Shown here piece after piece: positions 15,696-20,466 of a stretch of 64,000 bases of DNA (position 1 is its first letter; every line of letters starts with the position of its first letter). The notes under the pieces were generated by a model. It did no database searches, was not told where the DNA came from, and saw only the letters and a program-made list of their open reading frames with translations. Position numbers and translations under genes: made by a program. This DNA is from Ilumatobacteraceae bacterium (GTDB lineage: Bacteria; Actinomycetota; Acidimicrobiia; Acidimicrobiales; Ilumatobacteraceae): NCBI GenBank assembly GCA_024644465.1, contig JAHEKY010000007.1, positions 351 through 64,350 of the forward strand, given 5' to 3'.

Positions 15696-16888
15696 TCCAT
15701 GACCCCGGCGGCGCTGTCGGGGATGTACAGGTCGTCCGGGTCGTCGCCGTTCGCCTTGACCACGCTGGCTGCAGCAACGACGGCGGCGGTCACCGGGACG
15801 GCAACGAGTGCACCGACGATTCCGGCGAGCGCCGCTCCGACGCCGAGCGCGATGAGGATGACTACCGGGTGGAGCTGCACCTGGCGGCGCATCACCATCG
15901 GAAGCAGCACATCTCCTTCGATCTGCTGGATCGCGAGGACCACGACGGCGAGGATCACTGCGGTGGTCGGGCCCTCGGACACGGCCGCGATGCCGACCGA
16001 GAGCGCACCGACGAGCGTTGCGCCGACGATCGGGAAGAAGGCCGCGAAGAACGTGAGCACGGCGAGCGGCAGCGCAGCCGGGACACCCAGGACGACGAGC
16101 GCGATCCCGATGAGCACGGCGTCGGCCAACCCGGTGATCGCGATGCCCTTCAGCCAGCCCTGGAGCGACCCGAATGCGGCCCGACCGGCACGATCGAGGT
16201 CGTCACGGCGAACGGGCTTCACCCGCCGCAGCAACCAGCGCCACATCTCCGGGCCGTCCTTCAGACCGAAGAACACGACGACGAGCGCGAGGAAGAAGCC
16301 GCCGACGACCTCGCCGACCAGGCGGGCGGTCGAGCCGGGCTCGTCGAGCAAGCCCGACACGAAGCCGTCGCCGGCGGAGCTGAGCCGGTTGCTCACGTCG
16401 TCGACCTGGGATTCGCTGAGCCCGAGGGGCCCGGTCTGCAACCAGCTCTCCACGTCGACGACGACCCGGTCGAACTCGTCGGCGAAGTCACCCACCGCCG
16501 CCGAGATCGGCGCCGCGAGCAGCCAGCCGATCAGTGCGAGCGTCCCGGCGACCGCGGCCATCGTGATCCACGTGGCCAGCAGGCGCGGCATCCGCGCGGC
16601 GAGTCGGTCGACGACCGGGTTGAGGAGGGCGATGATCAGCAGCGCGACGAAGATCGGAATGACGACCACGCGGAGCACCACGAGGACCCGCAGCGCGAGA
16701 TAGATCGCAACGGCGACAACGATGAACCGCCATGCCCATGCGGCGCCGTGCTGGAGGAACGAGGGAACCGCCGCCCGCGAACTCCCGCCTGGGCTGTCGG
16801 CGATCGCCCCGTCGGCCACCACCCGGTCCGCGATCGCCCCGGAGGTCATCACGTGGTCCGGACGCGACGGGCTTGCCAGTTCGTACAT
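15692..16888 (-). CDS. AI-2E family transporter
   Basis: Multi-TM; FFPIVG, QQIEG..L.P, LHPVVIL, GALVAVP; start uncertain. Confidence 0.88.
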   Translation of the reverse strand: MYELASPSRPDHVMTSGAIADRVVADGAIADSPGGSSRAAVPSFLQHGAAWAWRFIVVAVAIYLALRVLVVLRVVVIPIFVALLIIALLNPVVDRLAARMPRLLATWITMAAVAGTLALIGWLLAAPISAAVGDFADEFDRVVVDVESWLQTGPLGLSESQVDDVSNRLSSAGDGFVSGLLDEPGSTARLVGEVVGGFFLALVVVFFGLKDGPEMWRWLLRRVKPVRRDDLDRAGRAAFGSLQGWLKGIAITGLADAVLIGIALVVLGVPAALPLAVLTFFAAFFPIVGATLVGALSVGIAAVSEGPTTAVILAVVVLAIQQIEGDVLLPMVMRRQVQLHPVVILIALGVGAALAGIVGALVAVPVTAAVVAAASVVKANGDDPDDLYIPDSAAGVME

Positions 16889-16983
16889 GCGCAGGCGATA
16901 CCCACAATCCCCCGGGTTCAACCGTGGCAATCGAACGGCGCCCCGCTCGCTCATCGAGCGAACCGGCGGGATACCGTCGAAGG

Positions 16984-18012
16984 GTGACCACGACGACGCT
17001 GCGCTACTCCGCCGCCGACCTGCTGCGCGACCACGACGGCCTCACGCCGCACGTCGTCGACGGCCGCCGCCTCCACGGCGGCTTCCACGCCGACGGCACG
17101 TACCAGCCGCCACGGGCGCTCGTCCGCGAGCAGGCGCTCGACGCCTGGACCGCAGCGCTCCGGGCACGGGGCGGCGACATGTTCCCCGCCGACGCCGGGC
17201 TGCTCACCGGGCAGCGGCTCCCGACTGCCGAGCAGCAGCGGATCCTGCTCCGCAACGGGCTCGACCGGATGTTCTGGAACTCGCTCACGGTCATCGGCAA
17301 GATCGAGGCGCGCGGCCGGCTGCTCGCCGACGTGGACTTCCCCGACCTGCAGCCGGCGATCGTCGACGACATCTCCGAGATGGCGATCGGCCACCTCGGC
17401 CGCGGCCTGCTCGTCGCGCACGGTCTCGACGAGGGCGGCGAGCCGGACGCAGGTGTCGGCGCCCACGACGCGATGTGGTTCATCGCCCGCGATCTCGTGT
17501 TCGACCACGGCGCCCACCCCGATGTCAGCCCCCCGGAGAACATCGCCCGCCCCGAAGCGGGCCAGCGGATCATGCCGGAGCTCGCGCCGGAGACCGAGGG
17601 CCTGCTGTCGCTCCTGGCGAACCTGCTGATCATCGAGTTCAGGGCCGAGATCGGCTTTGCCGACACCCAGGCGATCCTGCGTTCCGCGGACCTGTTCACC
17701 GATCGGCGGGCCGCCGCCGAACTGGCGGCGGAGATGATCGAGCGGATCCGAACCGACGAGGCGATCCACGTCCGCTCGCTGTGCCTCTACCTCGGCGAGC
17801 TGTGCACGGTCGAGTTCCGGACCCTCGACGGTGGCACGATCTCCGGCCTCGCCCTGATCGACCGCTTCTGGAGCGGCCTCGTGCACTGGGCGACCGTCGA
17901 ACAGCCGGCACTCAGCGTGGCGCGGATCCGCCCCGATTACGAGGCCTACATCGCGACCCACCCCGAAGCCGAACGCGTCCGGGCCGAGTTCGACGCCGCG
18001 GGCACGGCCTGA
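16984..18012 (+). CDS. Hypothetical protein, probable ferritin-like (diiron) fold
   Basis: Helical; IEARG, HGLDEGG...AHD, IEFRAE and RTDEAIH (DExxH) motifs. Confidence 0.6.
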   Translation: MTTTTLRYSAADLLRDHDGLTPHVVDGRRLHGGFHADGTYQPPRALVREQALDAWTAALRARGGDMFPADAGLLTGQRLPTAEQQRILLRNGLDRMFWNSLTVIGKIEARGRLLADVDFPDLQPAIVDDISEMAIGHLGRGLLVAHGLDEGGEPDAGVGAHDAMWFIARDLVFDHGAHPDVSPPENIARPEAGQRIMPELAPETEGLLSLLANLLIIEFRAEIGFADTQAILRSADLFTDRRAAAELAAEMIERIRTDEAIHVRSLCLYLGELCTVEFRTLDGGTISGLALIDRFWSGLVHWATVEQPALSVARIRPDYEAYIATHPEAERVRAEFDAAGTA

Positions 18013-18058
18013 AAAACGGCGAACGACCCCCGAGAAATCGGAGGCCGTGCGCACGTTG

Positions 18059-18131
18059 CTCCGGGAGCAGGGCTCGAACCTGCGACATTCTGATTAACAG
18101 TCAGACGCTCTGCCAGCTGAGCTATCCCGGA
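18059..18131 (-). tRNA. tRNA-Asn(GTT)
   Basis: Full cloverleaf TCCGGGATAGCTCAG...TCTGA-CTGTTAA-TCAGA...GGTTCGAGCCC...TCCCGGAG; CCA not encoded. Confidence 0.96.
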
Positions 18132-18774
18132 AAGACTTCGGAGAGGATATCGCTTCGATCATTGCCATCACACGCCGATGGATGGTTCGACAGCTGTAGC
18201 ACACCGTTGCGCAACCATGCACATGACGATTCCGCCGTCGCGTGAGATCCGCCACAGCTCGATACGGCTTGGTGAACTGCGCCCGCGGGATCTTCGTGAC
18301 GTGCTCCCAATGCCGAATGGCCGCGTCGAGGTCCAGATCAGCGTGCAGGTACAGATTGACCCGTAAGCGGCGCTCGTCGATTTCGAACTCCGACCTGAGC
18401 CAGGTGAGGAAGATGCGCACGAGTCGCTCGTCGCTGTTCGCGAACTTGAGAGCACCGTCGGACTTGCTGCCCTCGCCTGCGTACAGCGCGAGGCAGAACA
18501 TCAGCATGTCGCGCTCCGAGACCTCGCCGATGGCGACATCGGCGTCGACGCGACACCGTTCCAGCTCGGCGAGCTTCTTCAGGTGCAGGGGGTGCGGCGC
18601 ATGTTCGCGATGGCCTCGGTTGCGCGGTTTCGGCACGAACTCGACATCGCGGGTCCAGATGGACACCGACGATTTCGACACGCCGAGCTCCTCGGCGATC
18701 TCGAGCAGCGTCCACGCCCGGGCCCGCAACTCACGCGCCCGTTGCCGTTCGACAGTCTTACCGCCGTAGCCCAT
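18094..18774 (-). CDS. HTH + LAGLIDADG-like domain protein overlapping tRNA-Asn
   Basis: N-terminal HTH (WTLLEIAEELGVSKSSVSIW); LALYAGEGSK helix followed by LKFANSD; stop TAA at 18094-18096; alternative start at 18792. Confidence 0.7.
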   Translation of the reverse strand: MGYGGKTVERQRARELRARAWTLLEIAEELGVSKSSVSIWTRDVEFVPKPRNRGHREHAPHPLHLKKLAELERCRVDADVAIGEVSERDMLMFCLALYAGEGSKSDGALKFANSDERLVRIFLTWLRSEFEIDERRLRVNLYLHADLDLDAAIRHWEHVTKIPRAQFTKPYRAVADLTRRRNRHVHGCATVCYSCRTIHRRVMAMIEAISSPKSFRDSSAGRASDC

Positions 18775-18832
18775 GTCCCCGATGATGCCCACACGGTGTC
18801 ACCACGATGCCAGGGCGCCCGTTCGGACCATC

Positions 18833-19106
18833 GACGAAGCCACCTCCCCGCGCCGACGGCGCCGGCTCGGGCACAGCCCGAGGACTCGAGTGCAGCGACG
18901 AAATCGCCGGGACAGCGACGCACGGACGCCCACTGACGAAGCCACCTCCCGGCGCCGACGGCGCCGGCTCGGGCACAGCCCGAGGACTCGAGTGCAGCGA
19001 CGAAATCGCCGGGACAGCGACGCACGGACGCCCACTGACGAAGCCACCTCCCGGCGCCGACGGCGCCGGCTCGGGCACAGCCCGAGGACTCGAGTGCAGC
19101 GACGAA
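18833..19106. repeat. 102-bp tandem repeat, about 2.7 copies, hairpin-rich
   Basis: GACGAAGCCACCTCC starts at 18833, 18935 and 19037; copies nearly identical. Confidence 0.95.
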
Positions 19107-19146
19107 GTCGCTGGGCCGGCGTAGCCGGCGCACGCCGAAGGCGTGC

Positions 19147-20466
19147 TCACTCGACTTCGAGGAACTCCCGCAGGCGCTGGCTCCGCTGGGGGTGGCGCAG
19201 CTTGGCGAGCGTCTTCGCCTCGATCTGGCGGATTCGCTCGCGCGTCACGCCGAACGCCTTGCCGACCTCCTCCAGGGTCTTCGCCTGGCCGCCGTCGAGG
19301 CCGAACCGCAACCGCACGATCTCCTGCTCACGTTCCGAGAGCTCACCGAGCACCTCGCCAACCGCATCGGTGAGCATCGCCCGCGTCGCCGCGTCAGCCG
19401 GGCTGTCGACCGAGTCGTCCTCGATGAAGTCGCCGAGGTTCGACTCGTCCTCCTCCCCCACCGGCGAGTCCAGCGACAGCGGATCCTGCGAGATCCGCAG
19501 CAGCTCGCGCACGCGATCCGGCTCGAGCTGCACCCGCACCGCCAGCTCTTCGATCGTCGGCTCCCGTTCGAGCTCCTGGTGCATCGTCCGCTTCGCCCGC
19601 GTCACCCGGTTCATGTGTTCGACCATGTGGACCGGGATGCGGATCGTGCGGGCCTGGTCGGCGATCGAGCGGGTGATCGCCTGACGGATCCACCACGTGG
19701 CGTACGTCGAGAACTTGAAGCCCTTCGTGTAGTCGAACTTGTCGACGGCGCGCATCAGGCCGAGGTTGCCCTCCTGGATCAGGTCGAGCAGTTGCATCCC
19801 GCGACCCGAGTACCGCTTCGCGATGCTGACCACGAGCCGCAGATTGGCCTGCGTCAGCTCGCTCTTGGCTCGCTCGCCACGGCTGACCGCCCGCATCAAC
19901 ATCCGGTTCTCGACCGGGTCGATCTCGGTGCCGTCCTCGGCCGCCTGGTCGATCCGCTGCGCGGCGTTGATCCCCTCCTCGATCAACTGTGCCAGGCGCC
20001 GCTCGTCGTCGACGGTGAGCAGATCGACCTGGCCGATCTCGCGCAGGTACATCCGCACCGCGTCGGACGTTCCGCCCTCACCCTTCGGTGCCGACTTCTT
20101 CGTCCGGCGGCCGCGACGGCGGCTCAGCAGCTTCTCGTCCGCGTCGTCGGGTGCCTTCGCCACTTCGTCGACGAGCACCTCCCGGACGATGCCCTGCGTC
20201 GGTTCGTGGTCCTCGGCGTCGGCGTCGAGGGCGTCGTCGATCGCGATGCCCTCGTCGGCCATCACGGACTGCACCTGCTCGAGGACGTCGCCGGTCAACT
20301 CGATGTGCCGCAGCACATGCGTCAGGTCCTCGGCATGCACCTCACCCGACTCGCGCCCGCGCTGTACGAGGTCGCCCCACTCCTCGGTGTCGACCCCACT
20401 GAACGGAGCGACCGCGTCGTCGGCGGGCGGCTCTGGAGCCGCGGCAGCACCGTCAGCTGTCGGCAC
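19147..20466 (-). CDS. rpoD: Primary RNA polymerase sigma-70 factor (RpoD/SigA)
   Basis: [59 protein letters not shown]. Confidence 0.95.

Follow-up and report, generated by a model that had tools for sequence, protein, structure and literature searches.

A tRNA-anchored HTH-LAGLIDADG protein from Ilumatobacteraceae and its family: a probable free-standing homing endonuclease of tRNA-Asn alleles

The gene between rpoD and tRNA-Asn in an Ilumatobacteraceae genome (G000) probably encodes a damage-induced, free-standing homing endonuclease, one that would cut rival alleles of tRNA-Asn within the anticodon arm or close to it and be copied along with its own resistant allele. More tentatively, the 5,536-cluster chromosomal LAGLIDADG family to which it belongs could be a set of gene drives that act on the tRNA genes of bacteria. 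Every branch would cut the anticodon-arm DNA of one tRNA type under PafBC or SOS wiring, becoming active while recombination is under way, and swap its nuclease half and resistant allele as a unit, diversifying anticodon stems and aiding the persistence of group I introns in tRNAs. The window is the whole stretch of DNA analysed, 64 kb long, and the locus lies on its minus strand with the following features.

19147-20466, minus strand: rpoD, sigma-70 regions 1.1-4 (Pfam); the upstream neighbour in many, not all, carriers
18833-19115, no strand: array of short hairpins, 2.8 copies of a 102-bp unit, 98% matches
18782-18803, minus strand: PafBC-type promoter-like 22-mer, GGTGAC-N10-CATCAT, 7 nt 5' of the ATG; layout as in the host recA promoter
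18094-18774, minus strand: nuclease ORF P0001, from ATG 18774 to TAA 18096-18094, 226 aa; HTH plus a single LAGLIDADG domain; likely leaderless start
18646-18756, minus strand: N-terminal HTH, about residues 7-43; PF13384, E 3.4e-5; predicted helices 7-18, 23-30 and 34-40; HTH structure matches at Z 5-5.7
18130-18522, minus strand: LAGLIDADG domain, about residues 85-215; structure matches and family profile against I-DmoI
18436-18474, minus strand: codons of the predicted active-site residues E101, K104 and N113, aligned to I-DmoI E117, K120 and N129
18144-18173, minus strand: likely tRNA-Asn promoter in the last helix of the ORF, with -35-like GTGTGA, 18 nt and -10-like TATCCT; inferred from sequence position and recurrence
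18149-18144, minus strand: -10-like TATCCT of the likely tRNA-Asn promoter, read from the sequence
18131-18058, minus strand: tRNA-Asn(GTT); ARAGORN, Rfam 69.8 bits
18094-18096, minus strand: TAA stop of the nuclease ORF, equal to tRNA positions 36-38; sequence and ARAGORN
18089-18105, minus strand: tRNA-Asn anticodon arm, a 17-bp inverted repeat; hypervariable among congeners and the presumed target region in rival alleles
18019-18050, minus strand: terminator-like hairpin followed by a T run, 3' of tRNA-Asn; fold z -5.67

An earlier note on this DNA, made from the letters alone, had described the order rpoD, 102-bp array, ORF of about 226 aa and tRNA-Asn, which coordinates, Pfam, ARAGORN and Rfam confirm. 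The 38-nt overlap of the ORF with the tRNA that it reported, with the TAA at 18096-18094 in the anticodon loop, is likewise borne out by the sequence. Its description of the gene as inserted between rpoD and the tRNA holds only on the tRNA side. Another gene stands upstream in loci L002-L004 and L013, so the anchor is the tRNA and not rpoD. No integrative-element hallmark (integrase or att repeat) was found, the nuclease ORF standing alone between rpoD and tRNA-Asn, and an upstream duplicated front half of the tRNA was absent in 20 of 21 carrier loci; the locus that scored, L044, has a real tRNA-like piece upstream. Scans for terminators and sigma-70 promoters made no call at the locus, either for the hairpin at 18019-18050 or for the likely tRNA-Asn promoter. 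In the host genome, which is 83% complete, this tRNA-Asn(GTT) is the sole Rfam-supported copy found, a second ARAGORN call on contig C25 having no Rfam match. The nuclease gene is single-copy there, and its closest named relative is in an Ilumatobacter MAG, at 86% identity.

Public-run contigs from one sample, possibly the source, show zero differences over 18059-18434 and 18132-18879. One contig of that sample carries a 9-nt deletion and a substitution at 18817-18827, just upstream of the nuclease promoter, which points to strain variation there. The rpoD-tRNA joints among the same-sample contigs are flanked by little sequence and probably belong to other organisms. Searching public sequencing runs for this stretch gave contigs and no raw RNA reads. 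On the plus strand, a 426-codon ORF (16732-18012) converges on tRNA-Asn; it has an 84% counterpart in genome G004 and a tRNA(CAT) in its place in most relatives, and searches of Pfam, NCBIfam and PADLOC gave no match to it.

We rejected the 102-bp array as part of the nuclease element: one copy at 86% occurs in G004 and none in the other stored loci. Its copy number is that of this assembly, since no public-run contig crosses the array. The unit folds no better than its shuffles (z -0.18), and relatives at 75-81% lie elsewhere in the host genome. It reads as short hairpins strung together, each with a 3-nt loop, resembling a REP-type repeat family of this lineage, and weaker relatives or sub-motifs lie at about 25560-25660 of contig C125 and about 500-570 of C3. 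By sequence comparison, the array is a bystander, a repeat that expanded locally on the upstream side of the nuclease promoter.

The protein itself, by model and sequence, joins an HTH to a single LAGLIDADG domain whose predicted active site is intact. The N-terminal HTH and the LALYAGEGSK...FANSD segment named in the earlier note are both present in the translation, although the PF13384 match to the former is narrowly below that family's cut-off. An AlphaFold2 model built on a 50-row alignment (mean pLDDT 88.7) starts with an HTH, which a linker helix connects to an alpha/beta domain reaching to about residue 215, beyond which it is low-confidence. Compared by VIA-align with 48,161 chains, the model found LAGLIDADG proteins as all five of its best matches (rmsd 2.9-3.8 A across 78-86 residues): 7qsu (Z 7.3), I-DmoI (7.3), WhiA (6.7), E-DreI (6.0) and I-Vdi141I (6.0), the top Z of 7.3 being moderate and within the range that VIA-align itself terms common. 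Foldseek against the PDB and viral libraries returned nothing at E<=0.001. A 45-sequence family profile matches I-DmoI by sequence (E 7.8e-5), placing E101, K104 and N113 on E117, K120 and N129, and so the LAGLIDADG fold with an acidic residue that the note had proposed is recovered by both routes. LAGLIDADG homing endonucleases carry a metal-binding acid where the first helix ends, together with a catalytic Lys and a Gln or Asn, and these three residues correspond to that set. Among the 120 homologs listed, E101 is conserved in 119, K104 in 119 and N113 in 120, and an acid, K and N occupy these positions in 47/47 loci. In the relevant passages of PMC3384342, I-DmoI E117 is essential, the lysine is K120 in one place and K130 in another, and WhiA is without catalytic residues equivalent to those of I-DmoI. 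With dN/dS of 0.11-0.29 over five pairs, and 0.11 against the nearest relative, the nuclease is evidently under purifying selection. In LAGLIDADG enzymes two such helices pack against each other, either in a homodimer or in a tandem monomer, and tandem two-domain homologs of this protein occur (for example P0170, P0177 and P0239). The nuclease domain has no family in NCBIfam, PADLOC or PHROGs, PADLOC giving an HTH-only match, and an ESM Atlas search returned only unnamed HTH clusters.

Homologs are numerous (1,783 matching proteins at 90% clustering; 5,536 clusters at 50%) and patchily distributed. The gene is present in 2 of 24 congeners and 5 of 40 relatives. Among 401 genomes of the class 91 carry it, and among 401 of the phylum 48; the unpublished genome G269 is included in that class count and in the counts on the 30 Asn and 20 Lys loci, and the unpublished G725 in the phylum figures. 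Comparison with relatives, which the note had suggested, thus shows patchiness, including rpoD-tRNA joints without the gene. Linkage to tRNA genes is the rule. The best 30 class loci all adjoin tRNA-Asn, all 20 loci chosen from weaker class matches adjoin tRNA-Lys(CTT), and each of the best 30 phylum loci lies at a tRNA-Asn, Lys(CTT) or Gln(TTG), the gene converging on the tRNA in two cases. A metagenome pattern scan yielded 120 loci plus two viral ones; in 60 of the 75 complete copies followed by >=150 nt of sequence, a tRNA on the same strand begins -200 to +100 nt from the stop, with 20 tRNA types represented, and 13 of the remaining 15 have a tRNA just upstream. The metagenome copies appear to be CPR-like; both viral-contig loci show the CPR-type pattern beside tRNAs, and one related Atlas cluster is mostly Minisyncoccota. 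The tRNA linkage of the family is, across the loci compared, far beyond chance, and the note's view of the gene as free-standing and tRNA-anchored is upheld. In the Asn clade the fold is predicted, the homologs adjoin the tRNA and mostly read into it, and the gene is far from universal, so that none of the outcomes named in advance as refuting the note was seen.

Several observations on individual loci accompany this survey. Members at L310 and L311 converge on the 3' end of tRNA-Asn rather than entering its 5' end, and five loci (L093, L097, L105, L127 and L148) hold two members within 3-6 kb, in tandem or at adjacent tRNAs. In genus g222, with genomes of 7.5-9.9 Mb, the gene lies 5' of tRNA-Gln(TTG) and the proteins have an extra N-terminal HTH (L315-L319, L321, L323, L328 and L330); the tRNA-Gln(TTG) bodies of these congeners differ almost throughout. 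Among 14 loci selected for ARAGORN intron calls or tRNA-Met neighbours, Rfam recognises group I introns in the tRNAs beside the nuclease gene in five. In these metagenome contigs (L101, L108, L109, L132 and L169) the introns sit in tRNA-Met or tRNA-Phe right beside family members, a possible case of collaborative homing. A tblastn search of phage and plasmid records gave no nuclease match, and thus no vehicle was found. A full-text literature search, with most subscription journals outside its scope, found no paper on this tRNA-linked HTH-LAGLIDADG family.

If the nuclease cuts rival tRNA alleles, likely spreading or protecting itself in this way, this would explain why the linked tRNA varies far more than unlinked tRNAs among relatives. 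Within the genus, tRNA-Asn has seven anticodon-arm types in 24 genomes, with a mean difference of 0.272 (G725 again counted). The five unlinked controls (n 19-24; tRNA-Phe is missing from the set) range from 0 to 0.058, Lys-CTT having two types (0.058) and His, Lys-TTT, Thr and one Met a single type each. In families with the Lys-CTT-linked gene, Lys has 17 arm types in 19 genomes (0.359) and Asn nine in 17 (0.142). Arm hypervariability therefore appears to be reciprocal, following the linked tRNA, be it Asn or Lys. Variation in tRNA-Asn is also uneven, with two types of T arm against ten of anticodon arm. The tRNA(CAT) just downstream of tRNA-Asn is nearly as variable (0.204), and in the Lys cluster Arg-TCT (0.271) and Leu-TAG (0.223) vary while Gly and His are invariable; because these neighbours also vary, a locus-wide exchange hot spot is possible. 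Carrier G021 and non-carrier G024 have identical tRNA-Asn, and one multi-pair arm type is shared by five genomes that do not form a clade in the dnaG tree (AU p 4e-6; this set was named post hoc, with the tree already seen).

The tRNA(CAT) gene deserves separate mention. It occurs in either orientation in L019-L039 and L243-L247, with seven arm types in 24 genomes, and its stems at times resemble the Asn stem of the same genome, hinting at conversion between both tRNAs or at an insertion hot spot.

Joint exchange of nuclease and arm is best seen in one sister pair. G021 and G101 have DnaG proteins that are 98% identical (dS 0.27) and flanks at about 86%. Their HTH halves differ at dN 0.05 and their nuclease halves at dN 0.62 and dS 1.9, and their arms differ, so the nuclease half and arm were apparently swapped together. 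The G021 nuclease half is closest to those of G430-G432 (66-70%), where a near-identical arm is found, and that of G054 is closest to G000 and G004 (58-60%), whose arm is identical to its own. For the G101 nuclease half the search for a donor found none, the best match being 54%, and the AU test does not reject a G021+G101 grouping (p 0.55). G101 and G000 have 8/10 stem bases in common, yet their nuclease halves are just 44% identical. Over nine carriers (36 non-independent pairs, hence descriptive), distance in the HTH half follows dnaG at rho 0.69 and the arm at 0.09, and the nuclease half correlates at 0.39 with dnaG and 0.35 with the arm. Class-wide covariation between ten predicted DNA-facing residues and the arm is not significant in 47 loci (p 0.17); a K110/R196-arm signal in 28 proteins is confounded by kinship.

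The promoter of the nuclease gene resembles those of DNA repair genes. The site GGTGAC-N10-CATCAT and the host recA promoter, TGTGAC-N10-TACGGT, have the same layout. Passages of PMC8635444 give the PafBC consensus as tGTCgg(N10)tA(N3)T, and the nuclease promoter fits this layout with G for C at position 4, as does the recA promoter. A matrix trained on 13 nuclease promoters from other genomes ranks the nuclease site 31 and recA 12 among 6.7 million host-genome positions. Of ten other high-ranking host ORFs, Pfam identifies Lhr, RmuC, a RadA-type protein (a label inferred from its domains), GyrB, a PemK toxin and S6, four being without a match. recA, lexA and a tandem WYL pair (324 + 339 codons), taken here as pafB and pafC, are present in the host genome. 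In the Asn clade, a relaxed PafBC layout occurs in 13 of 35 promoters (background 62/3,606) and an SOS-box-like palindrome in 10 of 35 (background 14/2,922), the latter scored against the SOS-box consensus. The PafBC layout is found in 22 of 23 Lys-clade copies (background 13/782). Elsewhere, a PafBC or SOS motif occurs in 3 of 12 Gln-clade and 1-2 of 65 metagenome copies, for which true starts were not located; G725 enters these two counts and the Asn- and Lys-clade promoter counts. Damage-regulon control of the nuclease is likely, as judged from these motifs, two deep clades and two regulators agreeing.

Viewed across the host genome, PafBC-type motifs also lie 5' of a PemK/MazF-type toxin-antitoxin locus (C46:2424-3071), rpsF (C72:527-955) and gyrB (C133:4031-6100), outlining a repair regulon.

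Within the last-helix codons, the end of the ORF likely contains the tRNA-Asn promoter: most carrier alleles, and many empty ones, have a -10-like box at a similar distance. In 12 of 21 congeners with a tRNA-Asn hit, rpoD is joined to tRNA-Asn without the nuclease gene. When the 27 nt 5' of the -10 box were compared with carriers at the DNA level, 8 of 20 empty alleles scored above the maximum of 139 control tRNA leaders; the peptide-level score exceeds controls in one to three of the 20, and the remnant in the empty allele of G018 reads as a carrier C-terminal peptide. At least some empty alleles are thus deletion products that keep the likely promoter. A host promoter kept inside the nuclease ORF is described for T4 free-standing nucleases in passages of PMC2988022. 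The presence pattern requires >=3 changes on a 31-genome dnaG tree, and the nuclease gene tree largely tracks host families; because of this agreement and the mere three changes needed, loss alone can explain the pattern. These allele and tree comparisons show long residence of the gene with loss. Invasion of an empty allele was not seen in the 31-genome dnaG tree, the gene tree or the empty alleles.

The earlier note had proposed that RNase P, by removing the stop codon, couples expression to tRNA maturation. As a selected device tying protein level to tRNA maturation via tmRNA clearance, this is very improbable. It does have points in its favour: the peptide ends of all 120 top homologs read as tRNA-Asn sequence (90 ending in PG, which from the peptide would be a TAG at tRNA positions 8-10, 28 like P0001, and two reading through), 28 of 30 Asn-clade loci have no stop before the tRNA, and the genome has tmRNA, so that damping as a side effect is plausible. 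The family as a whole speaks against it. The stop falls at positions 8-10 in 21 of the 30 Asn-clade loci, before the tRNA in two, beyond it in six and at 36-38 in just one; it precedes the tRNA in 16 of 20 Lys-clade loci, and in 36 of 60 metagenome copies it comes no later than the first tRNA base. All three reading frames are used. The tRNA moreover has a likely promoter of its own within the ORF end, and what evidence there is on regulation favours DNA-damage promoters. The anticodon-loop stop is not special, because an ORF entering tRNA-Asn in that frame finds no earlier stop; on this comparison it is a reading-frame accident. The overlap is explained by lack of room: the modelled fold extends to about residue 215, where the tRNA begins, and confidence in the tail beyond it is low. 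RNase P may still damp overlapping copies, with no requirement for it in the family.

We picture the probable homing cycle as follows. The nuclease would work as a homodimer and cut DNA. Under PafBC here, and LexA in other carriers, it would be induced in the same conditions that raise RecA, namely damage or the entry of single-stranded DNA. With two alleles in one cell, the sensitive tRNA allele would be cut, the nuclease's own allele spared, and the break repaired from the carrier, so that gene and resistant tRNA variant would be copied together. Repair would make use of the tRNA at one end and, at the opposite end, of rpoD, the HTH half or some other gene upstream. The ORF would bring no stop of its own and take whatever stop the tRNA offers in its frame, and a tRNA promoter in the last helix would mean that deletions must spare that part, leaving the remnants in empty alleles.

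A rather unlikely alternative is that the host keeps the gene as a damage-response or defence nuclease, vertically inherited, induced with recA, cutting incoming DNA (phage, tRNA-site integrative elements or foreign alleles) and often lost. The repair-regulon promoter in two deep clades, the gene tree that tracks host families, the purifying selection and the loss with remnants all suit such a nuclease, but host benefit alone explains neither one branch per tRNA type over 20 types nor the reciprocal arm diversity and the half-gene swap. The gene is also missing from 22 of 24 congeners searched and has no PADLOC family besides the HTH-only match.

Two further readings change what the protein does at the locus. 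It could be a non-cutting regulator of the WhiA kind, which would bind either its own promoter or the tRNA locus and so adjust the supply of tRNA once DNA has been damaged, as the place of WhiA among the top structural matches (Z 6.7) and the well-conserved HTH half would allow. The near-invariance of E101, K104 and N113, lost in WhiA according to passages of PMC3384342, together with the reversed domain order and patchy distribution, makes this even less probable than the coupling device. Least probable of all, a homing nuclease might target the upstream junction or promoter of the empty allele, with arm variants hitch-hiking in conversion tracts. Identical tRNAs in a carrier and a non-carrier, the variable neighbouring tRNA(CAT) and the negative residue-arm covariation test agree with a target of this kind, yet the T arm is far less variable than the anticodon arm (2 vs 10 types), and junctions make a poor conserved target because what lies 5' of the promoter varies widely from one empty allele to the next. 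The reading we prefer is a nuclease that homes on the anticodon arm, and it would give a selfish cause for the anticodon-stem diversity of tRNAs, usually read as translation tuning; a single family supplies ten natural variants of the arm on which this idea can be examined. Thousands of small, natural LAGLIDADG scaffolds whose targets can be predicted would be a further gain.

Among known systems, an intron-encoded homing nuclease of bacterial chromosomes is similarly aimed at the anticodon region but, unlike the gene here, is carried in an intron. That nuclease is not known to be a LAGLIDADG protein. I-DmoI has a similar fold, matching over 81 residues (2vs8; Z 7.3, rmsd 2.9 A), and the nuclease motif aligns to its second domain; it is an archaeal two-domain monomer encoded inside an intron, whereas the nuclease here has one domain behind an HTH and is free-standing, without intron or intein. 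WhiA/DUF199 also joins a LAGLIDADG fold to an HTH (8dy9, Z 6.7). As far as passages of PMC3384342 describe it, WhiA has two LAGLIDADG domains, a C-terminal HTH and no catalytic acids and is widespread in Gram-positive bacteria, whereas in our nuclease the HTH is N-terminal and E/K/N are retained, and the gene is optional.

The closest parallels are phage nucleases. SegB of phage T4 is described in passages of PMC2330249 as free-standing, beside tRNA genes, cutting tRNA gene DNA and co-converting the tRNA region. A free-standing nuclease gene beside tRNA genes is found here too, tRNA-gene cutting being predicted only. SegB is a phage-borne GIY-YIG enzyme that recognises a T-loop motif of many tRNAs (same passages), whereas the present family is LAGLIDADG and chromosomal, with one branch per tRNA type, variation in the anticodon arm and a repair-type promoter. 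For the seg/mob nucleases, passages of PMC2988022 report that the promoter of a downstream essential gene inside the nuclease ORF favours retention, and that introns and free-standing nucleases form pairs. An optional gene outside introns and inteins, a fixed site, empty alleles in relatives and, as is likely here, an embedded downstream-gene promoter are shared features; those passages concern protein genes of T4-like phages, in contrast to the bacterial chromosomal tRNA genes here. For phage tRNA-gene homing nucleases such as SegB, co-infection brings alleles together. If our reading is true, a chromosomal family in Actinomycetota and CPR-like bacteria would show how haploid cells can sustain homing, the nuclease making use of the regulon for damage and recombination. 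New here are the likely embedded tRNA promoter with its remnants, the reciprocal arm hypervariability, the apparent swap of nuclease half plus arm, and the PafBC/SOS-type promoters.
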